Below the pieces are notes generated by a model that worked only from the letters and a program-made list of their open reading frames with translations, was not told the origin of the DNA and ran no database searches. A DNA stretch of 64,000 nucleotides from the NCBI GenBank assembly GCA_041664445.1, contig JBAYKT010000006.1:8058-72057 (forward strand), read 5' to 3'. A program made the position numbers and the translations under genes. Origin of the DNA: Patescibacteria group bacterium (GTDB taxonomy: Bacteria; Patescibacteriota; Patescibacteriia; Patescibacteriales; UBA12465). This document shows, piece after piece, positions 7,107-57,524 of the stretch (position 1 is the first letter of the stretch; each line of letters starts with the position of its first letter).

Positions 7107-7946
7107 TTATTTCTTTGGTTTTTTAACTTTTTCTTTTTTTTCTTTTTTAGGCTCAGCGGCTTCTTCATCTTCAACAATTTCAGCTACAGCTTCGTCTTCT
7201 TCAATAACGACTTCAGCTTCAATCTGGTTAGCGGCTTCGGCGGCCATTTCTTTGCCGATATTTTCCGGTAACAAGGCTTTATATTGTTCAACTAATATTT
7301 TAACCGCTTCATTGAAAGCATCTTCCGGGCTAATTGTGCCATCAGTTTTAACATTCAAAACTAACTTATCCCAGTTGGTCATTTTACCGACACGGGCATT
7401 ATCAACTTGAATGCTAACAACAGTTACCGGAGAAAAGATGGAATCAATTTCAATGAAACCAATTTCCTTATTTTCTTTCTTATTGCCTTCAGACATTTTA
7501 TAACCACGTCCGCCTTTTACTAAAATTTCAGCTTCTAAGCTTCCGGCTTCGTCCGTAATATTAGCAATCACTAAATCCGGATTCTTAACCTCCACATCGC
7601 TATTTTTAGCAATATCACCGGCAGTAACCACTTTCTTGCCTTTAACTTTTAATTCCAAGCGGATTTCTTCTTCGGTAAAAACCTTAAGTCTTAATTGCTT
7701 CAAGTTTAAAATCATTTCTAAAACATCTTCTTTAATATGAGGCAGGGCCATAAATTCATGGCTAGCACCTTTAATTTTTACTCCGATGACAGCGGCTCCT
7801 GGCAAAGAAGACAAGAGTACGCGGCGCAAGGAATTTCCCAAGGTCATACCATAGCCAGGAAATAGAGGCTCGATAGTAATGATTCCCTCGTTGGTATCAC
7901 CAACGGTCTTAAAATCAATTTTCTTAGGATTAGCGATGTTTTGCAT
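7107..7946 (-). CDS. rpoA: DNA-directed RNA polymerase alpha subunit, N-terminal domain only plus an acidic/Lys-rich tail
   Basis: GYGMTLGNSLRRVLLSSLPGAAV is the alpha-NTD signature. Conserved position between rpsD and rplQ. The last 53 aa are low complexity, with no alpha-CTD motif. Confidence 0.9.
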   Translation of the reverse strand: MQNIANPKKIDFKTVGDTNEGIITIEPLFPGYGMTLGNSLRRVLLSSLPGAAVIGVKIKGASHEFMALPHIKEDVLEMILNLKQLRLKVFTEEEIRLELKVKGKKVVTAGDIAKNSDVEVKNPDLVIANITDEAGSLEAEILVKGGRGYKMSEGNKKENKEIGFIEIDSIFSPVTVVSIQVDNARVGKMTNWDKLVLNVKTDGTISPEDAFNEAVKILVEQYKALLPENIGKEMAAEAANQIEAEVVIEEDEAVAEIVEDEEAAEPKKEKKEKVKKPKK

Positions 7947-26126: not shown

Positions 26127-28172
26127 TTAGTTATTTATTCTTATTATACCAGCATTAACGCCACCGTTAAAGTCCTGATCGTAAGCGTAGAAGGATTCCA
26201 AAATTAATCCGTCGCCGCTAAAAACTCTGACATGAGGCGTGGCGCCGCTATAAGCGCTGAGGATTATTTCAGAAACGCCGTCGCTATTAATATCACCAGC
26301 CGATAAATTGACACCTCCTTGCCAACTCTTTCCATAAGCCAGAAATTTATTAATCAATTGAGCTCGATTATTATAAATTTTAACTTGTGGTTCTCGGCCT
26401 GACCCGGGAGCAACTATAATTTCGGCCTTATTATGATCTTTGCGACCATCTAAATTAGCAACTGCGACATTAACTCCACCACGAAAACTTTTTTCATAAG
26501 CCAAGAAACTGCCGATTAATTTTCCATCGGAATTAAAAATTCTAATCTGCGGCTCACTTCCTTTTCCGAAACCAACTACAATCTCCGGTAAACCCTTGCC
26601 GTCAATATCTCCGGCGGAAATATTAAATCCTCCTCGCCAATTGCTTGGCGCCGCTAAAAATTGTCCTTTTAAATTTCCCCGATAATCAAAAATTTTAATT
26701 TGTGGACTACCACCAGAAGCAGGCGCCACAATTATTTTTTTGGCACCGCTATTATCCAGATCTATCAAAGCAACATTTAGACCGCCACGAAATTTTTTAT
26801 CGGCCGCCCAAAATTCTCCCAATAATTTTCCCTGATTACTTAAAATTCTAATTTTTGGTTCATCGCCAACAGCCGCTCCTACCACTATCTCATCAACCCC
26901 ATTATCGTTAATATCGCCAGTTACAAAGGGCGCACCGGTTTTAATGGCACTATCCGGCAAATAATATGCCAAATCGCCATTAGCAGCTACAACCTTGAGT
27001 TTATTCTTTTGAGTTGCGGGCAAAATCAATAAACGACCGAGATGATTATATAATTTTTCTTTGGCCATTTCGACAGCGCGATTGACATTTAAGCGGCCAT
27101 TACCGAGCTGACCTAAATAATCAGGATTTAGGCGGCTAATATTATCCGTGGAAGCAAACAAAATATTAACAGTTTCGCGGCGACTCAACTCCGGATTGGC
27201 TTGTTGGATTAAAGCAAGTGTGGCTGAAACTAAAGGCGCCGCCATGGAAGTCCCAGACCAATAGCCATCATAATATTTAATCGCTCCCGCGCGACTATCG
27301 CCGGTTACGGTATTAAAAAAACTAATTCCGGGAGCGGCAATATCCACACAACTAAAACCATAACTGGAAAATTTAGTTTTCTGATCAAGTGCGTCAGTGG
27401 CAGCCACGCCGATAACCATATTTTCACCAACCAAATTACCATCGTAACAAGCGGGGTAAATTTTGGTTTTATCGATATTATAACCTTCGCCGGCAGCCTG
27501 TTCGTTCCCGGCGGCGGCGACAATCATTACCCCGGCATTATGAGCCCGAGTAATTGCTTCTTGCAAACCGGCGCTATAATTAAAACTGACAAAACTAAGA
27601 TTAATAATATCAGCGCCATTATTGATTGCGTAGTCGATGGCGCGAATAACATCGCTAGCTCGTCCTTCGCCCTTATCGTTTAAAGCTTTAAGCGGCATAA
27701 TTTTGGCACGCCAAGTTACTCCGGCTACACCTTGGTTATTATTACCGCGAGCGGCGATAATTCCAGCTACCATAGTTCCATGAGAAATTCCGGCCTCAGT
27801 CCAGCCATCAGCAAATTTAGGCGAAGGATCGGGGATATTGGCGGAAAAATCCCAACCATTTATATCATCAATAAAACCATTGCGATCATTATCAATGCCG
27901 TCCCCAGAAATTTCTCGGTTATTTTTCCAAATATTATCACGCAAATCGGGATGATTTATTTGAATGCCAGAATCAATAACTGCAATTACCGTATCTGGGC
28001 TTTCCGAGACCTTATCCCAAGCACTATCAGCTTTAATTTTGGAAAGATACCACTGATTGCTAAAGAAGGAATCATTAGGCGTAATGCCAGCATAAACCGG
28101 CACGGCCAGCGCGCTTAGAAGTATAAAAAAAGATGTTATTATTTTATTCATATAACATCTATATAATACCAC
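26127..28172 (-). CDS. secreted subtilisin-like (S8) serine protease fused to a C-terminal FG-GAP-type beta-propeller
   Basis: Catalytic triad contexts VIAVIDSGI (Asp), SHGTMVAGIIAA (His) and GTSMAAPLVSA (Ser). Signal peptide after the probable true start at the ATG at 28151. About 6 repeats of ~48 aa, e.g. RGGxNVxxGDIDGDGxxEIVVxxGxGxxPQIRIF. Confidence 0.85.
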   Translation of the reverse strand: MVLYRCYMNKIITSFFILLSALAVPVYAGITPNDSFFSNQWYLSKIKADSAWDKVSESPDTVIAVIDSGIQINHPDLRDNIWKNNREISGDGIDNDRNGFIDDINGWDFSANIPDPSPKFADGWTEAGISHGTMVAGIIAARGNNNQGVAGVTWRAKIMPLKALNDKGEGRASDVIRAIDYAINNGADIINLSFVSFNYSAGLQEAITRAHNAGVMIVAAAGNEQAAGEGYNIDKTKIYPACYDGNLVGENMVIGVAATDALDQKTKFSSYGFSCVDIAAPGISFFNTVTGDSRAGAIKYYDGYWSGTSMAAPLVSATLALIQQANPELSRRETVNILFASTDNISRLNPDYLGQLGNGRLNVNRAVEMAKEKLYNHLGRLLILPATQKNKLKVVAANGDLAYYLPDSAIKTGAPFVTGDINDNGVDEIVVGAAVGDEPKIRILSNQGKLLGEFWAADKKFRGGLNVALIDLDNSGAKKIIVAPASGGSPQIKIFDYRGNLKGQFLAAPSNWRGGFNISAGDIDGKGLPEIVVGFGKGSEPQIRIFNSDGKLIGSFLAYEKSFRGGVNVAVANLDGRKDHNKAEIIVAPGSGREPQVKIYNNRAQLINKFLAYGKSWQGGVNLSAGDINSDGVSEIILSAYSGATPHVRVFSGDGLILESFYAYDQDFNGGVNAGIIRINN
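26130..26990 (-). repeat. ~6 tandem FG-GAP-like repeats (protein level) in the S8 protease C-terminal region
   Basis: Recurrent units: GDINDNGVDEIVVGAAVGDEPKIRIL, IDLDNSGAKKIIVAPASGGSPQIKIF, GDIDGKGLPEIVVGFGKGSEPQIRIF, ANLDGRKDHNKAEIIVAPGSGREPQVKIY, GDINSDGVSEIILSAYSGATPHVRVF. Confidence 0.75.
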
Positions 28173-29453: not shown

Positions 29454-30461
29454 TTATTTAGTTGCTAAAATACTGCGCTTATATGAATCTAAATTGTCTA
29501 AGGCAATCCCAGTGCCTTTGGCAACACAGAGCATGGCATCGTCAGCGACATAAGCCGGCACGCCGGTCGTGCGCGCAATCAGCTGATCCATGTTGCGGAG
29601 CAAAGAGCTCCCCCCGGTTAGAACAATTCCCTTATCCATAATATCCGCCGATAACTCCGGCGGGGTTTTTTGTAAAACTTTTTTGGAAGCGGAAATAATC
29701 GCTTCTAGCTCATGCTGAATCGCTTCGGTAACGTCATCGCTAGAAACGGTAATACTGCGTGGCAAGCCCGTAACAATATCGCGGCCCCGAACTTCCATAT
29801 GCAGCTTATCCTCCATATACAAAGCCGAACCAATATTTATTTTAATTTCTTCAGCTGTTCGTTCGCCAATCGCTAGATTATATTTTTTGCGGACATATTC
29901 CAAAATTGCGGCATCAAATTTATTGCCACCAACTCTTACTGAAGTTGAAGCTACCACGCCGCCCAAAGAAATAACGGCCATTTCCGCGGTACCACCGCCA
30001 ATATCAATTACCATATGGCCAGTTGCCGAACCAATAGGAATATCCGCGCCAATGGCCGCTGCTACCGGTTCCTTAATAATATAGGCTGCTTTAGCGCCAG
30101 CCGCAATCGTGGCCTCAATAACCGCCCGTCTTTCTGTCGAAGAAATTCCGGCCGGAACAGCCACCATCACCTCTGGTCTAAATAAGCGTAAACCGCCTAA
30201 AGTTTTATTAATAAAATATCTAATCATGGCTTCAGTCGCCCGATAATCGGCAATAACGCCATCTTTTAGGGGTTTGACCGCCATAATAGTATCGGGGGTG
30301 CGCCCCAACATATCTTTGGCTTCATTGCCAACAGCTAATATTTTTTTGTCCGCGATTGATACTGCCACCACGCTCGGCTCATTAACAACAATACCTCGAC
30401 GAGGTAAATAAACCAAAGTATAAGTTGTGCCCAAATCAATCCCGATTTGTTTAATAAACAT
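29454..30461 (-). CDS. mreB: actin-like rod-shape protein MreB, paralog 1 (stand-alone)
   Basis: IGIDLGTTYTLVY, DIGGGTAEMAVISLGG and GIVLTGGSSLLRNMDQLI are the MreB/actin-fold phosphate and adenosine motifs. Confidence 0.9.
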   Translation of the reverse strand: MFIKQIGIDLGTTYTLVYLPRRGIVVNEPSVVAVSIADKKILAVGNEAKDMLGRTPDTIMAVKPLKDGVIADYRATEAMIRYFINKTLGGLRLFRPEVMVAVPAGISSTERRAVIEATIAAGAKAAYIIKEPVAAAIGADIPIGSATGHMVIDIGGGTAEMAVISLGGVVASTSVRVGGNKFDAAILEYVRKKYNLAIGERTAEEIKINIGSALYMEDKLHMEVRGRDIVTGLPRSITVSSDDVTEAIQHELEAIISASKKVLQKTPPELSADIMDKGIVLTGGSSLLRNMDQLIARTTGVPAYVADDAMLCVAKGTGIALDNLDSYKRSILATK

Positions 30462-35215: not shown

Positions 35216-36256
35216 TTAATCGGAGCTGGTTGGCAAAATTACTTTTTCTAACAATTCTTTATTATTTAACAACAAGCCTGTACCGCGAGCAACACAAGTT
35301 AAGGGATCATCAACAATTTTGACGGGAATTTTAGAAGCAGCGGAAATTGCTTTGTCCAAGCCGCGAAGCAAAGCGCCGCCGCCAGACAAATAAAGACCGC
35401 GCTCATAAATATCGGATACTAATTCCGGCGGCGTGGTTTCTAAAATAGTTTTAATATTATCAATTATCTTGCTGACAGTACGGCTAATTGCCTCCCTAAT
35501 CTGCTTATCATTAATCATAATCGCTTTTGGCAATCCGGTTAATAAATCACGGCCACGAACTTCCATCTCTTTCGGCTCATCAAGCGGAACGGCTGAACCA
35601 ATACCAATCTTAATGCTTTCAGCCAGTTGTTCGCCGATTAAAATATTAAATTCCTCGCGAATATATTCAATGATGTTGCCATCAAATTCATTTCCAGCCG
35701 CCTTCAAAGATTTCCAGGTAACCACACCTCCCAAAGAGATAACCGCAATTTCGGTAGTGCCGCCACCGATATCCACAATCATAGTCGCTGTCGCATCGGT
35801 TACCGGCAAACGGGCGCCAATCGCCGCTGCCATCGCCTCTTCAATCAAATAAACTTTACGCGCGCCGGCCGATTTAGCGGCGTCTTCCACCGCTTTTTTT
35901 TCCACTTCCGTTAAATCCAAGGGGATGCCAATTACCACGCGTGGACGAGAGACTAGCGCAAAATTATCATTATGAACTTTACTGATGAAATACTTGAGCA
36001 TTTTTTCCGTTACTTCAAAATCAGAGATAACGCCATCAACCAAAGGCTTGATAGCTTCAATATGTCCTGGAGTTTTGCCGACCATTTTTTTAGCAGCTTC
36101 TCCAACTTCCAAAATTTCGTTAGTTCGTTTATTAATTGCGACCACGCTCGGCTCGTTAATCACTAAACCTTTATCACTAAGATAAACCAGGGTATTTCTG
36201 GTACCCAAATCAATTCCTAAATCATGGCTAAATTTTCCTAGCAATTTATTAAACAT
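35216..36256 (-). CDS. mreB: actin-like rod-shape protein MreB, paralog 2 (in the mreBCD operon)
   Basis: LGIDLGTRNTLVY, DIGGGTTEIAVISLGG, GLYLSGGGALLRGLDKAI. Confidence 0.95.
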   Translation of the reverse strand: MFNKLLGKFSHDLGIDLGTRNTLVYLSDKGLVINEPSVVAINKRTNEILEVGEAAKKMVGKTPGHIEAIKPLVDGVISDFEVTEKMLKYFISKVHNDNFALVSRPRVVIGIPLDLTEVEKKAVEDAAKSAGARKVYLIEEAMAAAIGARLPVTDATATMIVDIGGGTTEIAVISLGGVVTWKSLKAAGNEFDGNIIEYIREEFNILIGEQLAESIKIGIGSAVPLDEPKEMEVRGRDLLTGLPKAIMINDKQIREAISRTVSKIIDNIKTILETTPPELVSDIYERGLYLSGGGALLRGLDKAISAASKIPVKIVDDPLTCVARGTGLLLNNKELLEKVILPTSSD

Positions 36257-46134: not shown

Positions 46135-46608
46135 TTATTTGATAATTTCTAATTTTTGACTAATAATTTTTGCAGTATATTCAGCTGTTGATGGCTTATC
46201 AAAAATAAATTCGCCTTGAAACTTTTGACCGGCGATTAAAAGCGGTAACCAGAAGATATCGTCGGCCCACATCTTCTCATACGGAATATCTTTAATTTCA
46301 AACCACTGCGGACGCATCTCTTCAGTTTCTTGCGGCTGGCCGGAAAATTTCTTCGCCCTAAAAACGTGAACTTCCAAATCCGGAGTGGCATCAACAAATT
46401 TAAAAATTAAAGTTCCTATTTCTAACAAGTCGCTAGCAACGATATTAGACTCTTCAAATAATTCTCTCGCCGCCGCCTCCTCAATCGTCTCACCTAACTC
46501 AATTTTACCACCGAAACCATTCCAGCGACCGGCACCAAAACCACGTTTCTTCATTCCGAGAAGTATTCGGGAATCCTGGCAAATTATGGTTAGGGTTAAT
46601 TGTTTCAT
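46135..46608 (-). CDS. MTH1/NUDT1-type NUDIX hydrolase (oxidised purine dNTP pyrophosphatase-like)
   Basis: [20 protein letters not shown] and [28 protein letters not shown] closely parallel human MTH1 as I recall it ([48 protein letters not shown]). NUDIX box: [22 protein letters not shown]. Confidence 0.85.
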   Translation of the reverse strand: [157 protein letters not shown]

Positions 46609-46612
46609 TTAA

Positions 46613-47002
46613 TTATAAAAATTTTATCAATTCTTCCGGAGTCTTAACGACAGCACTAAATAAAACTTGGCGACAAGGCTCGGCGTCATTTTCATCTTGT
46701 ACATAAATTGGTTTATTAAGTGCAACTGCGTAACCAATTTCCATATTAACGCTCACTCCCGCATAACCATCTTTATTATAAATATAGATTACATCGGCCA
46801 TGCGCATTTTATAAAAATGGTCATGAGTTAAACCAAGGGCGACATATTTACGATCAGATTCTTTAATTTCATTCCAAACTCCTCCAGACGCTCGATAGAG
46901 ATGAGGCTCATAAACAACTACGCCTAAATTTTTAAGACGCTTAGAAAATTCTCTCATCTCGGAAGCAAAGCTAGAACTTCCGCAAATAACTACTGACTTC
47001 AT
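46613..47002 (-). CDS. DNPH1/Rcl-like or nucleoside 2-deoxyribosyltransferase-fold protein
   Basis: VVICGSSSF and ADVIYIYNKDGYAGVSVNMEIGYAVALNKPIY parallel the recalled rat Rcl sequences VYFCGSIRGG and ADVVVAEVTQPSLGVGYELGRAVALGKPIL. The catalytic-type Glu in the EIGYA context is present. Confidence 0.6.
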   Translation of the reverse strand: MKSVVICGSSSFASEMREFSKRLKNLGVVVYEPHLYRASGGVWNEIKESDRKYVALGLTHDHFYKMRMADVIYIYNKDGYAGVSVNMEIGYAVALNKPIYVQDENDAEPCRQVLFSAVVKTPEELIKFL

Positions 47003-47029
47003 ATTTATTTTCTAAAAATAATAAATAAA

Positions 47030-47758
47030 CTATTCTAATTCTGCCAAAGCCTTTTCCAATTCATCTTTAATAAACCGCGAGTTATCATAAACGTTTTGCC
47101 AATAATGCAAGGCGTTCAAAAGATTTCTAGGAATTTCATTTAAAGCATTAGTTTTAGCATCGGTCAGAGCAGCGGCCTCGTTATACAAACTATGCATTTC
47201 CCCAAATTCCGAACCAACTAAGTTGTGTTTTTCGCAATATGGCTGCCAAAGACGCTGAAAATTTTCTTCAGACAATTCAACTATGCTTTTTATTTCATCC
47301 AACTTATCGCGCAAACTAATCATCATATCAACTTTTTCGCCACCTCGAGTTTCTTTCAAACTTCTAATCTTTTGCCAATCTTCTTCTTCTAAAACCCCGT
47401 AAGTCCGAGGCAAAAAAGTTAAATCTCCAGAAAAGCGACTATTTTCAATTTTATCCTTGCCTTCATAAAAATACTGTTCTCTTTTTTCGGCGATTCCTTT
47501 CCAAGCTCGATGTTTGGGATCGTTTTTGTGAAAAATATAAACACCGCCGCTAGTTGGTTCAACAAAATCTCTCTTTTTCAATTCATAAGCACCGCCTTGA
47601 TTAGCATGCTCTTGCAAATAGTTGCGTAAAGCGGCCGCCTGTTCAAAGTCTTCTTTTTTAATAGCCTCATCAAGCTGAGCTGAGACCAATTTTAAATCAG
47701 GATTTTCTTTTCTAAGTTCGGAAGGGCGCTTAGTCATCTCCATTTTTTCTAAACCCAT
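47030..47758 (-). CDS. uncharacterised UVR-motif protein, paralog A
   Basis: The UVR-like motif LDEAIKKEDFEQAAALRNYL is present. Four blocks align with ORF 48391-49140. No catalytic motif recognised. Confidence 0.6.
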   Translation of the reverse strand: MGLEKMEMTKRPSELRKENPDLKLVSAQLDEAIKKEDFEQAAALRNYLQEHANQGGAYELKKRDFVEPTSGGVYIFHKNDPKHRAWKGIAEKREQYFYEGKDKIENSRFSGDLTFLPRTYGVLEEEDWQKIRSLKETRGGEKVDMMISLRDKLDEIKSIVELSEENFQRLWQPYCEKHNLVGSEFGEMHSLYNEAAALTDAKTNALNEIPRNLLNALHYWQNVYDNSRFIKDELEKALAELE

Positions 47759-47798
47759 AAATTTAAAGTTAATTTAAAAATTGAAACTTAGAATGAAA

Positions 47799-48386
47799 CT
47801 ATCTTCCTGTTTCCGGCATCTTTATCCATTTATTAGCCTTCAGATGCCAATCGGAAACATCTATTGTTTGAATTTCATCCCAAACTTTTTTGGCTGACTC
47901 TGTATATAATTTTTCATTTCTGACTAACTTACGAAAATCTTGCAGTTTAGCCGGCAGCTTTGAACCGCGCTCTTCTAACTCCTTAAGTTCTAAATCAATA
48001 TCCAGATTATCGGCGTCTTTAACAATTTTAGCTTCCAAGGAATTGCGCTCTTCATACTCTTTAAAAACATCGGTATAAAAATCGGAAAAAATTGTATCAG
48101 CTAGAGAATCGTGGGCCGCTTTATCATCGTCAGCCTGAGTATAAACTTTTTGGATATAACCTAAATCGGAAGTTCTGATTTCCGAAATATCATGGACTAA
48201 AGCCATTTTAATAATTTTATTTTCATCCACTCCTTTCTCCATTCGCGCTAGCATAAGCGCCAACCAGACAACGCGATAAGTATGTTCATGGACACTGGCG
48301 CAATCCAAACCAAAATGCTGGCGCCAGGCGCGCGGTACGTTGCGCATTGTTCCGAGTTCAAATAAAAAATTAATATCGTTATTCAT
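47799..48386 (-). CDS. HD-domain phosphohydrolase, YfbR/HDDC2-like 5'-deoxynucleotidase type
   Basis: LGTMRNVPRAW...SVHEHTYRVVWLALMLA...MALVHDISEIRTSD parallels E. coli YfbR (RW...ENVSEHSLQVAMVAHALA...YHDASEVLTGD, recalled). A later KDADNLD motif is also present. Confidence 0.8.
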   Translation of the reverse strand: MNNDINFLFELGTMRNVPRAWRQHFGLDCASVHEHTYRVVWLALMLARMEKGVDENKIIKMALVHDISEIRTSDLGYIQKVYTQADDDKAAHDSLADTIFSDFYTDVFKEYEERNSLEAKIVKDADNLDIDLELKELEERGSKLPAKLQDFRKLVRNEKLYTESAKKVWDEIQTIDVSDWHLKANKWIKMPETGR

Positions 48387-48390
48387 AAAT

Positions 48391-49140
48391 TTATTTAGTC
48401 ATCTCTTTAATCGCCATTTCTAAATCACCAACAATTTGGCTGCTATTATCATATATCCCATTCCAATAAGCGAGCGGCTTACTGATAAAATCCGGCATGG
48501 CCTCCATTCTCTTCCGTAATACGTCCTGTGTTTTTGGTAGACCAGGAAAACGACTAGGAGCGCTCTCGGCGTTAACTTTTGAAATCAGCTCGCGCTTATT
48601 ATATGTTTGAAAAATATTATCAATTTTTGATTTGGCAATATTTTTTAATTCTTTTGCTTCACTGTATAAATTGTGAAGGGAGGATAAATAATCTGTTCTT
48701 TCGCCCAAATCTTGTAAATTTTTATAATGCCGAACATCTTCCCAAAGTTCAGTGGCAAATCCTCCTAAATATTGATCATCCTTATCTAAATAATGGGAAA
48801 ATGAAGAAGATTTAACAATATCTTTGCCAATATACATATCGGCCATTTGTTTAGCCATGATTCCTTGCCAAGCCCTTAGCTTAGGATCGTCGATTTCATC
48901 TTCGGATGCAGATTTCCCATTATTTTCCTTTTCTTCACCTAAAATATCTTCTTCACGGATATAAGCCAGCGGTTGATTATTTTTGCCCAACTTATCTTGC
49001 GCGTCCCGCAAATAAGCTGCCTGTTCATAATCCTCTTCGGAGATGGCCTCTTTCATCTGCAAGCTAATATATTGCAAGGCGCCGAGTTCTTTCTTTTTCT
49101 CGGGACTGGCGGAAAAATTTGGCATCTTTTCAGAACTCAT
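48391..49140 (-). CDS. uncharacterised UVR-motif protein, paralog B
   Basis: UVR-like motif MKEAISEEDYEQAAYLRDAQ. It shares DPKLRAWQGI, GKD...SS.FS and a C-terminal YWNGIYDNS...L..A. block with ORF 47030-47758. Confidence 0.6.
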   Translation of the reverse strand: MSSEKMPNFSASPEKKKELGALQYISLQMKEAISEEDYEQAAYLRDAQDKLGKNNQPLAYIREEDILGEEKENNGKSASEDEIDDPKLRAWQGIMAKQMADMYIGKDIVKSSSFSHYLDKDDQYLGGFATELWEDVRHYKNLQDLGERTDYLSSLHNLYSEAKELKNIAKSKIDNIFQTYNKRELISKVNAESAPSRFPGLPKTQDVLRKRMEAMPDFISKPLAYWNGIYDNSSQIVGDLEMAIKEMTK

Positions 49141-49145
49141 ATATT

Positions 49146-49469
49146 TTAAACAATTTTAAAATTTAACATTTTGACAAGCGTATTCCAATTTACCTTATCT
49201 CCATAAAAAGATTGATAATTTTCCAACATTTCTTCGCGACTCGCAAACTTTTCATGGCCAATAAAATCTTCGTCTTTAATATCTTGCAATTCTTTTTCTT
49301 TTACGGCGATAATCTCGGCATCAGCAAATTTTTCCTTGGTTTCCCAAATCAGTAATTCAACCCGATCTCCGATTCTCAAATCCTTATCGTCAAATAAACG
49401 CCAAGTTGCCGTCTTTCTGCCGGCTAGTATTTCATCAGCTAGATTTTTCCTAAACTTGAGCGTTTTCAT
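49146..49469 (-). CDS. ASCH-domain protein, YqfB-like (N4-acetylcytidine amidohydrolase family)
   Basis: NLADEILAGRKTATWRL parallels E. coli YqfB FQDDILAGRKTITIRD (recalled). Size (~105 aa) and the C-terminal beta-strand NFKIV (YqfB: EFKCL) also match. Confidence 0.7.
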   Translation of the reverse strand: MKTLKFRKNLADEILAGRKTATWRLFDDKDLRIGDRVELLIWETKEKFADAEIIAVKEKELQDIKDEDFIGHEKFASREEMLENYQSFYGDKVNWNTLVKMLNFKIV

Positions 49470-49476
49470 CTAAGTG

Positions 49477-49908
49477 TTATTTATTTTCCATCATAGTTAT
49501 TGCCTCCATTATATATTCACTGCGCAACCGGTCTTTCATATTTTTAATTTCTTCTAAAGTAAGCCAACTGGCATTAAGAATTTCATCTTTCGGCCAAGCT
49601 AATTCTCCGCCAATTATTCGAGCTTCATAGACATGTTTCGGAGGTGTTTGGGAATGGGCTTGAAAAATATCAAGTTTTTTAATTAACTCAACCTCATATC
49701 CAGACTCTTCTTTTGCTTCGCGAACAGCCGCCTCTTCTATTGTTTCGCCTTCATCCACTTTTCCGGCTGGGAAATTCCATAATTCATGAACTTTTGTGCC
49801 TGGGCGATTTTCTTGAACCAACAAATATTTATTATTTTGCTTGATAACTACCCCGGCGACAATATTTGTGGTAACTAATTTTTTCATAATATTTATTTCT
49901 ATTTCCAC
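49477..49908 (-). CDS. NUDIX hydrolase
   Basis: NUDIX box [25 protein letters not shown]. The start may be the ATG at 49887 (MKKLV), which would remove the 10-nt overlap with the upstream gene. Confidence 0.85.
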   Translation of the reverse strand: [143 protein letters not shown]

Positions 49909-50216
49909 TCCCTCTTCTTATTAATTTCCTCTTTATTTCTAAACGCCGTTTCTAAATCAATATTATACTGATTGGCAATTGAAGAAATAAAAATTATAAT
50001 ATCCGCCAACTCTTCTTCTACTGAGGTAAAATTAGAATTCAAATCGGTTTTCATTTTCTCAGTTTTTCTAACCGCTTTAAATAACTCGCCAACTTCTTCT
50101 CCCAAAAGGAGGCAGTTCTGAATAATGGAAACATCAGTAAAACCTCTCTCTGTTTCAATTTCTTTTACATACTTCTGAATGTCTAATAAAGTTGGTTTTT
50201 CTTTTAAAATTGGCAT
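49899..50216 (-). CDS. small MazG-type all-alpha nucleotide pyrophosphohydrolase
   Basis: Helix pair with acidic metal-binding motifs LLGEEVGELFKAVRK and EEELADIIIFISSIANQYNIDLETAF. About 105 aa. Confidence 0.75.
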   Translation of the reverse strand: MPILKEKPTLLDIQKYVKEIETERGFTDVSIIQNCLLLGEEVGELFKAVRKTEKMKTDLNSNFTSVEEELADIIIFISSIANQYNIDLETAFRNKEEINKKREWK

Positions 50217-50232
50217 ATTAAAAAATAATAGG

Positions 50233-50544
50233 TTACAGCTTCTTCACTTCAATCTCTGACATCGTTTCATTGAATGCGTTTTCCAAATCTATACCCAATT
50301 CATCGGCAATTATAATTATTGACCAAAGACAATCCGCTAATTCATGCTTTAATTGCTCATCAACGTTTTCCGCTTTACGAAGATTATTCTTTGCCATCAC
50401 TAATCGCATTAAATCACCGACGTCAACAACTAATCCCTGGGTTCGTTCTAATGAGCCCCATGGTTTTCCGGCCACCTTTTTTTCGATAATGGCGTATTTA
50501 TCTCTGATTACTTTTGCTCGATGAGTAATTTCTTCAAATTTCAT
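50233..50544 (-). CDS. small MazG-type all-alpha nucleotide pyrophosphohydrolase
   Basis: LVVDVGDLMRLVM and KHELADCLWSIIIIADELGIDLENAF. About 103 aa. Paralogous in architecture to the adjacent gene. Confidence 0.75.
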   Translation of the reverse strand: MKFEEITHRAKVIRDKYAIIEKKVAGKPWGSLERTQGLVVDVGDLMRLVMAKNNLRKAENVDEQLKHELADCLWSIIIIADELGIDLENAFNETMSEIEVKKL

Positions 50545-53399: not shown

Positions 53400-53429
53400 T
53401 TATAAAAGCCGCCTTTCTTATGGCGGCTC
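53400..53429 (-). terminator. intrinsic terminator after nrdB
   Basis: AGCCGCC / GGCGGCT stem, followed on the minus strand by ttttataattttt. Confidence 0.7.
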
Positions 53430-53462
53430 TTAAGTGCTAAAAATATTAGTTTTTATTACTAA

Positions 53463-54443
53463 TTATTTATGCGCCCGGTTATCTACTTCATACTTAGTAT
53501 TCTGGGCTTCAAAAAAGTTAACCAGTTCCAAGGTGTCGGTCTCCGTAGCCATCCATTGGGCTGGATTAACAGTGTTGAAGTGCGGTTCGAAGCCCAATTC
53601 TTCCAAGCGCCGATCGGCGACATACTCGACATACTGATTCACATAGTCGGCGTTGATGCCTAAAATTCCCCGGGGAAATAAATCACGGTTATAGGCGGTC
53701 TCCAAATTAACGCCATCAATGACAATATTTTTTATTTCTTCCGCAAATTCCGCAGTCGCAATCTCCGGATTTTCTTCCAAGATTGTTAAAATCAAATTAA
53801 TGCCAAATTTCAAATGCAAACTTTCATCGCGCACCACCCAGTCAATCATGGAGCCAAAATTTTTAAGCTTTTGCTTCTGACGAAAACTTAAAGCAACCAT
53901 AAAGCCGGAATAGAACCAAGTGCCCTCCATCACAATATTATAAGCTACTAAATTACGAACAAATTCCCGCTTCCCCTCCAAGCTTTCAATATCCAAAGTT
54001 GTGTCGCTCATCCGATTTAAAAATCGGGCGATAAAATCTTCTTTCGCTTTAATAGAAGGAATTTCTAAATGCTGAGCAAAAATCTTTTCTTTATCCAGCG
54101 GAAAAGTTTCTAAAACATACTCAAAGGCTACGCAATGGTTAGCTTCCTCCCACATTTGCTTCGCCAAATATAAATGAGCTTCCGGCGCTTTTAAATAAGG
54201 ATAGACGCCGAGCGCGAGCGTGCGGTTAACAATCAGCTCGCCGGGATTGAAAAAGCTCATCAAAAAACTAACGGCCTGTTTTTCATCCTCATCCATCTTG
54301 CGCCAATCATCCAAATCTTCTCCGAGCGCGATTTCGTGCGGGAACCAAGTATTGGCGACCGCTTGATTATATAAATCATAAGCCCACTGATATTTTATGG
54401 GGCGCAGATTCATATCTTCATTTAAGGGTTTTCCTAATATCAT
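53463..54443 (-). CDS. nrdB: class I ribonucleotide reductase small subunit with a class Ic-like signature
   Basis: Ferritin-like ligand motifs: FFNPGELIVN (E69), EEANH (E100, H103), MEGTWFYSGF and RDESLH. Position H+4 is Phe (HCVAF). A C-terminal Tyr is present in KYEVD. Confidence 0.9.
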   Translation of the reverse strand: MILGKPLNEDMNLRPIKYQWAYDLYNQAVANTWFPHEIALGEDLDDWRKMDEDEKQAVSFLMSFFNPGELIVNRTLALGVYPYLKAPEAHLYLAKQMWEEANHCVAFEYVLETFPLDKEKIFAQHLEIPSIKAKEDFIARFLNRMSDTTLDIESLEGKREFVRNLVAYNIVMEGTWFYSGFMVALSFRQKQKLKNFGSMIDWVVRDESLHLKFGINLILTILEENPEIATAEFAEEIKNIVIDGVNLETAYNRDLFPRGILGINADYVNQYVEYVADRRLEELGFEPHFNTVNPAQWMATETDTLELVNFFEAQNTKYEVDNRAHK

Positions 54444-54460
54444 ATAATTTTATATTTAAT

Positions 54461-56992
54461 TTATTGACAACTATCACACTGGGCGCGCTCCTGAGGATCG
54501 GTTGGGCAAGCTTTAAACTGAACCGGTTCTTCAACTTTAGCTTCCACCGGGACAGCTGCTGTTTCTAATTCCGCACTGGTGGCCACAACTGTGGCACCAA
54601 AACCAGCTTTCTTGGCAACGGCTCCAAACCCAGTCTTACCGATAGCCGTTGATTTGTTAACGGCAATCGTTGATTGCTCGGCGCTATGGCGCGGTTTCAT
54701 GTGAAGATAATAAGTGGTCTTCAAGCCCTTCTCCCAAGCTTTAATGTAAACATTCATGACTTCATCAATTTCTCTAGTCGCTAAATACATATTGCGACTG
54801 ATTGCCTGGTCCACCCATTTCTGAGCACGTGAAGCAACTTCGACAAAGGCTTGCGGGTCCACCGAAAAAGAATCTTTATAAATATGTTTGATATTTTCCG
54901 GAATATAATCTAAGCCGCTGATATCTCCATAAGAAGCGAGAATATCTTCGCGCGCTTTTTCCCAAAGTCCCAATTTTTTTAATTTATTAACCAGATTAAC
55001 ATTTAATTCCAAATGCTTGCCGCCAAGAGTGTTGCGGCTAAAAATTTGGGCGAAGCGCGGATCAATGCCGGTGGAAGTTCCAGCGACGAGTCCAATATTG
55101 GCTGTCGGGGCAATCGCCATCAAAGTTGAATTGCGCATTCCTTGTTTAACTTTGAGACGTAATTTATCCCAGTCCAATCTAAAGGAGACATTAATTTCAG
55201 ATTTCTCGCCGATATCGCGCCCATTTTCTAAAACCTTAACCGTATCTAGCGGCACAAAACCTTTAGACCAGCGGGAGCCATAAAAATTATCATAAGCGCC
55301 GCGCTCTTGCGCTAAATCGGCGCTAGCATCAATTGCTTGATAACTGATAAATTCCATAACAGCATCACTGAGTTCATAAGCCTCGGCCGAGTCATAAGCG
55401 ATATCAAATTTTTCAAACATATCCGCGAGCCCCATGACGCCTAAACCAACTGCTCGATTATGACTGTCGAAATTACGCGCTTCAATAATTGGCGGCTCAT
55501 TAATATCAACCAAATTATCTAATTGACGAACGGCTAAGCGCACACTTTTCTCCAATTCCTGCCAATCAATGTTAAATTTCCCGTTATCTTCTTTTAAGTG
55601 ACGCACTAAATTAATAGACGCTAAATTACAAACAGCGACATTATCCTTATTAGTCGGCAAAGTTATTTCCGTGCATAAATTAGAGCCGTAAATCGTGCCG
55701 GTATTATTGTTTAAGGCGCGAACGTTAATTGTGTCTTTAAAGGTTATCCAGGGATGAGCCGAGGCTTGCAGAGAAACTATCATTTGGCGGAATTGATCCA
55801 AGGCCTTAACTTTTTTAAAGACGCGCATTTCGCCTTGTTCGGCTAAATGACAATATTTTTGATAACGAACACTAAAATCTTCGCCATATAAATCAATCAA
55901 ATCCGGAGTTTCTTGCGGGTCAAATAAATACCAGTAATCATCATTTTTAACCCGCATCATAAATTCATCGGACAAATAAACGGCGGTATTGGCGGTCCGA
56001 GTACGACGATAATCATCACCGGCGTTCTGTTTTAAATCTAAATATTCCTGAAAATCGAAATGCCAATTCTCCATATAAAAACAGAGGGCGCCCATTTTCT
56101 TACCGGCGCGGGAAATTGCGCGGATAGCGGAATCAATAATATGTAAGAAAGGAACAGGGCCGGAAGAGAAAGTATTGTTGGTAGAAATCGGCGAGCCACT
56201 GGCGCGCAGTTTGGTGACGGCCAGCCCGATACCGCCCGTCGCTTTGGATAATTTTAAAACATCGGAAACGGTTTTGCCGATATGATCGACGTTATCTTCC
56301 ATCTCCATGATAAAACAATTGCTCAGGCGTGGCGAACGAGCGCCAGCATTAACATTGGTTGAACCGCCGGAGATATAATAAAGCTTGGACATGCGGTCAT
56401 AAAAATCCGCCGCCACTTTATCCGGCTCCTCCTCATTCCAAGACAAACCCATCGCCACCCGCAACCAAAAATATTGCGGCACCTCAGTCAGTTTTTGTTT
56501 TTCATCGCGCATCATATAGCGTCGCGACAGCGTTTCAATGCCGGCGTAAGTAAATAATTCATCGCGAGACGAGTCCAAAAGTGCAACCAATTTATCCAAA
56601 TCAAATCTTTGTAATTTTGAAGATAGCCAACCCTTATCAATACCGGCGCGTAATTCTTTCTTTAAGCCGGAGCGATAAATTTCCGAAAAATTGTCGTCAT
56701 TAGAGTCAACTCCCAAAACTTCCCAATAAATACCTTTTAAAAATAAGGCGGCGGCTAACTTATCATAATTAGGGTCATCTTTAATATGCTGTGCCGCTGA
56801 TTGCGTCAAAGCTTTATCAACTTCGCGCTCCGGCATGTTTTCGTAAAGAGTTTGCCAAGCTTCAGCCGCGACCGCTTTTATTTTTTCCGCGCCCAATCCT
56901 GATTTTTGGCCGGCGGCGACCAATTTATTTTCTAAATCCGGTAAAGATAACTCCCGGGTTTCGCCTCCATACGAGACAATCTTCTTAAGCAT
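54461..56992 (-). CDS. nrdA: class I ribonucleotide reductase large subunit
   Basis: Active-site contexts SNCFI, NLCTEI and PTANIGL, plus the C-terminal redox Cys pair (C...CDSCQ). The N-terminal ~90 aa is ATP-cone-like but divergent. Confidence 0.9.
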   Translation of the reverse strand: MLKKIVSYGGETRELSLPDLENKLVAAGQKSGLGAEKIKAVAAEAWQTLYENMPEREVDKALTQSAAQHIKDDPNYDKLAAALFLKGIYWEVLGVDSNDDNFSEIYRSGLKKELRAGIDKGWLSSKLQRFDLDKLVALLDSSRDELFTYAGIETLSRRYMMRDEKQKLTEVPQYFWLRVAMGLSWNEEEPDKVAADFYDRMSKLYYISGGSTNVNAGARSPRLSNCFIMEMEDNVDHIGKTVSDVLKLSKATGGIGLAVTKLRASGSPISTNNTFSSGPVPFLHIIDSAIRAISRAGKKMGALCFYMENWHFDFQEYLDLKQNAGDDYRRTRTANTAVYLSDEFMMRVKNDDYWYLFDPQETPDLIDLYGEDFSVRYQKYCHLAEQGEMRVFKKVKALDQFRQMIVSLQASAHPWITFKDTINVRALNNNTGTIYGSNLCTEITLPTNKDNVAVCNLASINLVRHLKEDNGKFNIDWQELEKSVRLAVRQLDNLVDINEPPIIEARNFDSHNRAVGLGVMGLADMFEKFDIAYDSAEAYELSDAVMEFISYQAIDASADLAQERGAYDNFYGSRWSKGFVPLDTVKVLENGRDIGEKSEINVSFRLDWDKLRLKVKQGMRNSTLMAIAPTANIGLVAGTSTGIDPRFAQIFSRNTLGGKHLELNVNLVNKLKKLGLWEKAREDILASYGDISGLDYIPENIKHIYKDSFSVDPQAFVEVASRAQKWVDQAISRNMYLATREIDEVMNVYIKAWEKGLKTTYYLHMKPRHSAEQSTIAVNKSTAIGKTGFGAVAKKAGFGATVVATSAELETAAVPVEAKVEEPVQFKACPTDPQERAQCDSCQ

Positions 56993-57060
56993 ACTTGTAT
57001 AAGAGTAAAATTTATTAATTTCCCGATTCTGGTGCTTATGTTGTGGTCGGGATATAAGTT

Positions 57061-57086
57061 ATTATACCATATATAGTATTTGCCAA
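57061..57086 (-). promoter_or_regulatory. candidate nrdAB promoter (extended -10 TGgTATAAT) overlapped by an NrdR-box-like 16-bp palindrome
   Basis: The minus strand reads TTGGCA (57086-57081), 14 nt, then TGG TATAAT (57069-57061). The palindrome ATACTATATATGGTAT (57079-57064) is self-complementary at 14 of 16 positions. It matches the recalled NrdR-box consensus acaCwAtATaTwGtgt at 13 of 16. Confidence 0.45.
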
Positions 57087-57104: not shown

Positions 57105-57141
57105 TAAAAAAGCCCGAAAACTAAATTTCGGACTTTTTTTA
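57105..57141. terminator. intrinsic terminator after hpf (A-run and T-run flanks, potentially bidirectional)
   Basis: CCGAAA / TTTCGG stem (57114-57119 / 57126-57131), flanked by aaaaaaa upstream and ttttttt downstream. Confidence 0.6.
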
Positions 57142-57197: not shown

Positions 57198-57524
57198 CTA
57201 TTTCCCCCGCTTCTTATCAATCAGCTTTTCTTTATACTTTTTAATAATCAGTTCTAAGTGGTCTTTAACCTTATCAATTGCTTTATACAAATCACTTTCA
57301 GTCTTCTCTACCCTTAGAATTTCATTAGGCACTTCTAAATTAACCTCGGCGCGAAAAATGTCGCCCTTATGTTGTCCGCCGACCGTCTTAGCAACTTCAA
57401 AATCACAATTAATGACTTTCACCTTGGTGCCTAAATATTTTTCCACCGCGTCCATCTTGTTTTCAATATACTGCTTAATAGCGTCAGTCATTTCTAAGCG
57501 CGTAGCTTTAATTTTGATTTTCAT
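57198..57524 (-). CDS. hpf: ribosome hibernation factor, short HPF/RaiA type
   Basis: MKIKIKATRLEMTDAIKQYIENKMDAVEKYL is a typical HPF/YfiA N-terminus. 108 aa, with no long-HPF dimerisation domain. Confidence 0.85.
   Translation of the reverse strand: MKIKIKATRLEMTDAIKQYIENKMDAVEKYLGTKVKVINCDFEVAKTVGGQHKGDIFRAEVNLEVPNEILRVEKTESDLYKAIDKVKDHLELIIKKYKEKLIDKKRGK

Follow-up and report, generated by a model that had tools for sequence, protein, structure and literature searches.

We analyzed two adjoining genes, nrdA and nrdB, in a 64-kb stretch of DNA (hereafter the window; 39% G+C) from a bacterium of the Patescibacteria, or candidate phyla radiation (CPR). As judged from their sequences, the two genes very probably encode a working class I ribonucleotide reductase (RNR) whose small subunit belongs to subclass Ic (R2c) and which would follow a Chlamydia-like mechanism. 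An initial annotation of this DNA had pointed out that the small subunit carries Glu as its first metal ligand and Phe where a radical Tyr is expected, and had predicted a manganese/iron cofactor with no tyrosyl radical. Both open reading frames (ORFs) are on the minus strand, and the residues that carry the assignment map as follows:

54461 to 56992, minus strand: nrdA, 843 aa, for the large (alpha) subunit of a class I RNR (NCBIfam NF005101, 1142 bits vs a cutoff of 988).
53463 to 54443, minus strand: nrdB, 326 aa, for the small (beta) subunit of a class Ic-type RNR (Pfam PF00268, E 1.3e-79).
54123 to 54239, minus strand: segment flagged initially, which by coordinate mapping spans NrdB residues 69-107, from Glu69 to Phe107, and includes E100-x-x-H103.
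54237 to 54239, minus strand: codon of Glu69, a site-1 ligand, Glu where class Ia/Ib has Asp (aligned with Chlamydia E89 and with an Asp of C. botulinum R2).
54123 to 54125, minus strand: codon of Phe107, redox-inert, at the class Ia/Ib radical-Tyr position (aligns to Chlamydia F127 and to a Tyr of C. botulinum R2).
53814 to 53927, minus strand: second half of the metal site, placed by the Chlamydia alignment, with E173 (53925-53927), F177 (53913-53915), W202 (53838-53840), E207 (53823-53825) and H210 (53814-53816).
54345 to 54347, minus strand: codon of Trp33, the electron-relay Trp, equivalent by alignment to Chlamydia W51 and E. coli W48 (role described in PMC4118035).
53490 to 53492, minus strand: codon of Tyr318 in the C-terminal tail, the interface radical-transfer Tyr, counterpart of Y338 in Chlamydia and Y356 in E. 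coli (alignment of '...ntkYe' with '...vieYq').

The NrdB strings quoted in the initial annotation were all found as quoted in the ORF at 53463..54443. FFNPGELIVN (residues 64-73) carries Glu69, EEANHCVAF (residues 99-107) carries E100, H103 and Phe107, MEGTWF (residues 172-177) carries E173, and DESLH (residues 206-210) carries E207 and H210. The ligand set consists of four Glu and two His (E69, E100, H103, E173, E207 and H210), the first ligand being Glu. [quoted passage not shown] At the radical-Tyr site, R2c proteins have Phe, sometimes Leu, Ile or Val (PMC3824934). Every part of the initial interpretation that can be checked by sequence holds for NrdB, which also scored 362.6 bits against the NCBIfam model NF007186 (cutoff 237).

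The closest PDB matches to NrdB were structures of C. trachomatis R2c (1SYY, 4D8F/4D8G/4M1H/4M1I and 2ANI; E ~1e-80, best 2.5e-80), followed by 6Y2N, which also has the Glu/Phe signature (E 8.4e-70). After these came a steep drop to the Asp/Tyr R2 of C. botulinum (6ZJK, E 8.3e-34) and to the R2 of E. coli and of eukaryotes. The alignment of NrdB with Chlamydia R2c has one two-residue gap ahead of residue 49 and is gapless thereafter, so that the residue offset is constant at 20 past that point. The claim that Glu69 is the first carboxylate ligand is borne out by its match to Chlamydia E89 in this gapless region (E69=E89), which continues with E100=E120, H103=H123, F107=F127 and F177=F197. The remaining ligands, said to be intact, are so (E173=E193, E207=E227 and H210=H230); outside the metal site, W33=W51 and Y318=Y338, and W202 stands at Y222. 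Two structures served as controls for the columns: 2ANI, titled as an F127Y mutant, departs from the wild type only at the Phe107 column, and 6ZJK reads 'FLNFLDSVQ' and 'QEEIHAQSY' at the same columns.

The initial annotation had named Tyr109, two residues beyond Phe107, as a place where the radical might sit after all. We ruled out this displaced site. Chlamydia R2c carries Tyr129 at the same +2 position and 6Y2N also has a Tyr there, so Tyr109 is no hidden radical site, and the 2ANI mutant marks the true one.

We also modeled NrdB with AlphaFold2, using a shallow alignment of 42 close homologues (73-86% identical). The model had a mean predicted local distance difference test score (pLDDT) of 69 and a predicted template modeling score (pTM) of 0.72, with residues 71-94 at a pLDDT <50. 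When this model was compared with the PDB by Foldseek, the top 13 matches were all Chlamydia R2c (template modeling score ~0.80, 0.80 to 4M1I; 42% identity), and 6Y2N came next.

We then determined how widely these residues are kept. In the query and its 120 closest database homologues (74-98% identical), W33, E69, E100, H103, F107, Y109, E173, E207, H210 and Y318 are present in 121/121 sequences; with all six ligands in place and the signature invariant, nrdB is not a decayed gene, in agreement with the initial annotation. The 42 aligned sequences likewise agree throughout at the metal-site residues E173, F177, W202, E207 and H210. We also searched the representatives of 50%-identity clusters exhaustively, which gave the following combinations of first ligand and residue at the Tyr site:

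Glu as first ligand with Phe, Leu, Ile, Val or Ala at the Tyr site: 39 representatives.
Glu as first ligand with Tyr at the Tyr site: 7 representatives.
Asp as first ligand with Tyr at the Tyr site: 55 representatives.
Asp as first ligand with a non-Tyr residue at the Tyr site: 1 representative.

Since the representatives are phylogenetically related, these counts are descriptive and carry no P value. The pattern of co-variation fits the published description of R2c (PMC3824934; PMC4118035), and the Glu/Phe signature is no chance substitution. One non-CPR Glu/Phe cluster consists of Bradyrhizobium and Tardiphaga. A phage origin of nrdB was ruled out, as no phage NrdB exceeded 36% identity. Among the NrdB representatives, many have a length of 610-760 aa and matched the query in two separated stretches (P0131, P0133, P0136, P0147, P0148, P0152 and others), which is the pattern expected of intein-interrupted genes.

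NrdA, the partner subunit, matched the Pfam domains Ribonuc_red_lgN and Ribonuc_red_lgC (all-alpha and barrel), and among solved structures it is nearest to P. aeruginosa NrdA (5IM3, E 5e-184). The motifs of a class I alpha subunit were located as follows:

54707 to 54712, minus strand: Tyr761-Tyr762 dyad (KTTYYL) of the alpha radical-transfer pathway; identical motif in P. aeruginosa NrdA.
55667 to 55681, minus strand: active-site loop N438-L-C440-T-E442 with the thiyl-radical Cys; 'snlcteitl' identical in 5IM3.
56315 to 56317 and 55628 to 55630, minus strand: redox cysteines C226 (LSNC226F) and C455 (AVC455NL), respectively; identical motifs in 5IM3.
54464 to 54478, minus strand: C-terminal tail C839-D-S-C842-Q, read from the sequence.

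The catalytic Cys, the YY dyad and the redox cysteines of a class I alpha subunit are thus all in NrdA. The tail cysteines C839 and C842 are presumably the shuttle dithiol for thioredoxin-like re-reduction, by analogy with E. coli C754/C759.

The initial annotation had placed nrdB directly downstream of a full-length nrdA. This is accurate: nrdA, at 843 codons, lies upstream on the same strand, and its end is 17 bp from the nrdB ATG. The same arrangement, with nrdA adjoining and preceding nrdB on one strand, was found in 80/81 related loci that we fetched; the sole exception (L082) had been fetched for another window protein. Because the NrdA motifs are intact and nrdA precedes nrdB in 80/81 loci, we regard the nrdAB system as complete. 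One further element lies just past nrdB:

53403 to 53432, minus strand: terminator-like hairpin of 11 pairs with a T-run, 31 bp past the nrdB stop, found by a consensus scan (pattern match only).

If this pattern match is a real terminator, the hairpin would end a two-gene nrdAB transcription unit.

By analogy with the C. trachomatis enzyme (PMC8463856, PMC4118035 and PMC11883743), site 1 (E69/E100/H103) would bind Mn(II) and site 2 (E173/E207/H210) would bind Fe(II). Oxidation of the Mn(II)/Fe(II) center by O2, or by two molecules of H2O2, would produce Mn(IV)/Fe(IV), and one electron passing through Trp33 would then bring this state down to Mn(IV)/Fe(III), the stable cofactor, with Trp202 probably joining the relay. 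The Mn(IV)/Fe(III) center would serve as the oxidant store in place of a tyrosyl radical. At every turnover, the metal center would reversibly oxidize Cys440 of NrdA by way of Tyr318 and Tyr761/762; the Cys440 thiyl radical would start the reduction of the nucleoside diphosphate, after which the C-terminal dithiol would re-reduce the active-site disulfide. We infer the Mn/Fe cofactor itself from homology to two characterized proteins.

The one departure from the Chlamydia relay is Trp202. Tyr222 of Chlamydia R2c takes part in the activation electron relay together with W51 and has been called conserved among R2c (PMC4118035), whereas the CPR proteins have Trp at this position throughout the 42-sequence alignment. 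Other Glu/Phe representatives have Tyr, Trp, Phe or Leu there. Because Trp is redox-active too, we consider Trp202 a variant of the relay and no disqualifier.

Several points weigh against a Chlamydia-like Mn/Fe enzyme. NrdB has only 42% identity to Chlamydia R2c and has swapped Tyr222 for Trp202, and among solved structures there are just two R2c proteins with which to compare it. The AlphaFold2 model is mediocre (mean pLDDT 69). A neighbor-joining tree of the representatives, built from BLOSUM distances, is poorly resolved; in it, the CPR clade is not sister to Chlamydia and the Glu/Phe and Asp/Tyr groups are mixed, with Chlamydia R2c as the nearest non-CPR sequence by distance. No thioredoxin, glutaredoxin or NrdH/NrdI was found among the long ORFs or the small CxxC ORFs of the 64 kb. 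Finally, the same sphere of four carboxylates and two His serves Fe/Fe, Mn/Mn and Mn/Fe centers (PMC4118035), which makes the identity of the metals the weakest step.

NrdB could, for this last reason, keep a Tyr-less scaffold with the oxidant on the metal and hold a different pair, either Mn2(IV/III) as in class Id or diiron. Class Id likewise uses a metal-centered oxidant (PMC8463856), the seven representatives that combine Glu with Tyr suggest a family that explores intermediate states, and 58% divergence separates the CPR clade from the one Ic enzyme that is well studied. A class Id-like pair is opposed by the distance to the class Id structures (6CWO/6CWP/6CWQ and 6SF4), which matched NrdB at E 1e-12 to 1e-13 vs 1e-80 for Chlamydia R2c, and by the F. 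johnsoniae enzyme, which keeps Tyr104 at the radical site (PMC8463856) where the window NrdB has Phe. Taken together, we judge another metal pair on this scaffold distinctly improbable. As a class assignment, a class Id small subunit was ruled out by Phe107 and by these distant structures, and a class Ia/Ib small subunit was ruled out by Glu69 and Phe107 and by low scores against NF006576 (76 vs 346 bits) and TIGR04171 (97 vs 355).

Two other readings would take NrdB out of catalysis by class I RNR or make it an accessory. R2lox proteins resemble NrdB in that their first ligand is Glu, they have no radical Tyr and their cofactor is Mn/Fe (PMC4118035; PMC3824934), and NCBIfam R2lox models do match NrdB weakly; their scores, however, were 27-86 bits against cutoffs of 194-346. 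NrdB also retains F177 where R2lox has an Ala that opens the ligand channel (PMC4118035), its Tyr318 tail, missing in R2lox (PMC3824934), is present and invariant, and its gene lies 17 bp past nrdA, an adjacency kept across the related loci. A silent beta-prime subunit of the yeast Rnr4 or apicomplexan R2_e2 type would instead need a Tyr-bearing NrdB encoded elsewhere. There are R2 paralogues that lack the Tyr in this way (PMC3824934), and our view is confined to 64 kb of the genome. Such subunits, though, cannot assemble a cofactor (PMC3824934), whereas the six ligands, W33 and the C-terminal Tyr of NrdB are intact and invariant, and neither the window nor the nrdA neighborhoods of the related loci showed a second nrdB. 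The complete nrdAB system and the intact ligands therefore speak for excluding both readings: that NrdB is an R2lox seems to us wholly implausible, and we give hardly any credence to a beta-prime role. A class Ic enzyme with a Chlamydia-like Mn/Fe center remains the reading that we prefer.

Next, we characterized the distribution of this gene. Relatives of nrdB occur in at least 573 species-level genomes (one genome per species), and the best 80 of these at least 573 genomes are metagenome-assembled genomes (MAGs) titled Falkowbacteria, Paceibacteria, Nomurabacteria, Staskawiczbacteria, Zambryskibacteria and Parcubacteria. Close NrdB homologues with a named source are all labeled as Patescibacteria (Patescibacteria group, Candidatus Falkowbacteria, Pacebacteria and Taylorbacteria). 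The nearest named genomes, at 81-83% identity, are Falkowbacteria, of the Parcubacteria group of Patescibacteria, and the window lineage is probably near Falkowbacteria. An identical NrdB protein is found on a Joint Genome Institute (JGI) metagenome contig with the same neighbors. NrdB that is 70-84% identical also occurs in MAG records with the title "uncultured Gammaproteobacteria bacterium" or "uncultured Candidatus Saccharibacteria" (L002, L004, L009, L012, L076, L079 and many others); these titles look generic or wrong for Patescibacteria bins.

The initial annotation had drawn from the class Ic signature an O2-dependent RNR in a lineage generally regarded as anaerobic and fermentative. 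An oxidant is required to assemble a class I cofactor, and it is therefore sound to conclude that this CPR bacterium encounters O2 or peroxide. The contrast with an anaerobic lineage, however, is less striking than was suggested. CPR bacteria are usually predicted to be anaerobic symbionts (PMC8407418), but the cofactor needs one oxidant event per assembly and none per turnover, trace O2 or H2O2 is enough, and in the Chlamydia enzyme H2O2 can replace O2 (PMC8463856). Oxygenated lake hypolimnia are rich in CPR MAGs, some of which have terminal oxidases, and almost all of those lake MAGs carry glutaredoxins, peroxiredoxins and catalases (PMC9166423). The isolate names of several of our related loci (Ike-100m, TrH, MaH and MsH) appear to match the lakes Ikeda, Thun and Maggiore of that study (PMC9166423). 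The gene is also common, and a class II or III RNR may coexist elsewhere in the genome; in the 64 kb we found no other RNR and no oxygen-handling gene (long ORFs by Pfam, and small CxxC ORFs).

Our literature search found no paper linking class Ic RNR to CPR or Patescibacteria. The class Ic typing of CPR RNRs appears to be unreported, yet it follows directly from annotated public genomes. A broader proposal is that the Tyr-less and presumably Mn/Fe class Ic enzyme is the standard RNR across much of Patescibacteria, perhaps the sole one in many, and forms a distinct R2c variant with a Trp relay, NrdR control and, in the Falkowbacteria-like branch, decay of the ATP-cone. We hold this proposal tentatively and consider it rather unlikely in full. 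If it were true, DNA synthesis in presumed anaerobic fermenters would depend on O2 or H2O2 plus manganese.

The control of the operon may differ between branches of the CPR. The NrdA of the window has a degenerate N-terminal ATP-cone, and two elements that resemble operator boxes of the repressor NrdR lie at the nrdA promoter:

56738 to 56974, minus strand: degenerate ATP-cone, NrdA residues 7-85 (Pfam PF03477, 16.9 bits vs a cutoff of 25.8, E 0.009).
57064 to 57079, minus strand: NrdR-box-like 16-bp palindrome 1, ATACTATATATGGTAT, which overlaps the TATAAT -10 element of the nrdA promoter.
57032 to 57047, minus strand: NrdR-box-like element 2, ACCACAACATAAGCAC, weaker and 32 bp downstream of box 1, from a by-eye alignment of upstream regions.

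Locus L024, which belongs to a different CPR clade and has the same class Ic type of NrdB, encodes an NrdA (7295-7726 of that locus) with a proper ATP-cone (47.5 bits, 'ITKHDGTKVPF'); the motif of this cone reads KHDG vs SYGG in the window NrdA. Allosteric on/off control may have been lost in the window branch of NrdA. Box 1 is a 14/16 palindrome that occurs once in the 64 kb, and nine close relatives (L003-L009, L011 and L012) have an equivalent box at the same place 5' of nrdA. Of box 2, just the 5' half is conserved, and relatives read ACACTATATATAG or ACCACAATATAG at the same spacing. The two-box layout is present in the nine close relatives and absent 5' of nrdA in more distant CPR loci. 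We take the boxes to resemble the NrdR operator consensus, which has two 16-bp palindromes ~31-32 bp apart. A genuine nrdR (Zn-ribbon and ATP-cone) adjoins nrdA in L076 and L079, and no nrdR gene was found within the window. Transcription of nrdAB probably starts from a promoter that overlaps putative operator boxes of the NrdR type. Because the ATP-cone of this clade looks non-functional, feedback by dATP would act on transcription and not on the enzyme, which suggests that in the Falkowbacteria-like branch the sensing of dATP/ATP has shifted from the enzyme to a repressor.

Upstream of nrdA, an apparent 550-bp gap is not empty; the 108-aa ORF that it holds was simply missing from a list of ORFs of at least 120 aa. 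This ORF lies between an M50 peptidase gene and nrdA and is followed by a hairpin terminator at ~57114-57131. On the other side, just downstream of nrdAB and secA, is a run of nucleotide-pool genes at 46135-50544 (minus strand). The annotated neighbors are:

57198 to 57524, minus strand: ribosome hibernation factor, 108 aa (PF02482, E 6e-19).
49899 to 50216 and 50233 to 50544, minus strand: two small MazG-like pyrophosphohydrolases.
49477 to 49908, minus strand: NUDIX protein.
46135 to 46608, minus strand: second NUDIX protein.
49146 to 49469, minus strand: ASCH-domain protein.
47030 to 47758 and 48391 to 49140, minus strand: two UVR-motif proteins.
47799 to 48386, minus strand: HD/YfbR-like 5'-deoxynucleotidase.
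46613 to 47002, minus strand: nucleoside 2-deoxyribosyltransferase-like protein.
29454 to 30461 and 35216 to 36256, minus strand: two MreB paralogues, with MreC.
26127 to 28172, minus strand: 681-aa subtilase with FG-GAP repeats.

Between 25095 and 62611 of the window, all ORFs that are 120 aa or longer and matched a Pfam domain are on the minus strand. An Rfam scan of the window returned no family at the gathering threshold. In Paceibacteria-type loci (L013-L081), a DUF192 gene stands ahead of nrdAB on the same strand in 38 loci, and nrdAB is often followed by a gene for glyceraldehyde-3-phosphate dehydrogenase (GAPDH; 22 loci), a split transketolase, RpiB and ribulose-phosphate epimerase-like genes. 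This neighborhood is unlike the secA and deoxynucleotide-sanitation context of the window. No RNR-specific accessory gene was found beside nrdAB in the related loci, where the recurrent neighbors are DUF192, GAPDH and pentose-phosphate genes.

Class Ic RNR has so far been characterized essentially in C. trachomatis, plus one further structure. The nrdAB clade described here would add a large, well-conserved environmental R2c group and a second lineage for the biochemistry of Mn/Fe RNR, for which the clade's NrdB proteins are suited because they are small and without inteins. For CPR biology, it would provide a concrete oxidant-requiring housekeeping enzyme as a marker of oxygen relations. The debate on CPR and oxygen is currently based on terminal oxidases and stress enzymes, and in the literature that we searched class Ic RNR was not used in these arguments. 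No concept is changed, as the class Ic subclass, its signature and its chemistry are already established.

Among known systems, P. aeruginosa class Ia NrdA (5IM3) shares with the window NrdA an identical active-site loop, redox cysteines and YY dyad. The P. aeruginosa protein is longer (963 aa), and the window NrdA aligns only from its residue 182 onward; P. aeruginosa NrdA has two N-terminal ATP-cones and a tyrosyl-radical NrdB as partner. R2lox (M. tuberculosis Rv0233) shares with NrdB the ferritin-like fold, the Glu first ligand, the lack of a radical Tyr and, by our reading, the Mn/Fe cofactor; it differs in having no C-terminal Tyr tail, in an Ala for the site-bridging Phe and in being unlinked to nrdA. 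In class Id beta subunits (NrdBi; F. johnsoniae 6CWO/6CWP, L. blandensis 6SF4/5OLK), the first ligand is also Glu. These proteins, which keep a Tyr at the radical position, use an Mn2 cofactor and are distant in sequence, would share with NrdB an oxidant on the metal and no tyrosyl radical (PMC8463856).

The two R2c proteins of known structure are closer. As compared with Chlamydia R2c, NrdB shares the fold, the six ligands with Glu first, Phe at the radical site, Tyr at +2, the Trp of the electron relay, the site-bridging Phe, the interface Tyr of the C-terminus and the pairing with an NrdA that, among solved structures, is nearest to the P. aeruginosa protein. The two proteins are 42% identical over 308 columns, the window N-terminus is ~18 residues shorter, and Tyr222 of the activation relay is Trp202 in NrdB. 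Chlamydia R1 has ~1050 aa and three ATP-cones, unlike the window NrdA of 843 aa with one degenerate cone, and Chlamydia is an obligate intracellular pathogen whereas the window host is a free-living or episymbiotic CPR bacterium. 6Y2N, which we take to be Saccharopolyspora erythraea R2c, shares the FFxxAE...EEAVHTHTF signature and the C-terminal Tyr at ~37% identity, and has Tyr ('qyqyilrdes') at the Trp202 position. Set beside these systems, nrdAB is a well-conserved, previously undiscussed but ordinary member of the known class Ic subclass, present in hundreds of ultra-small CPR bacteria.

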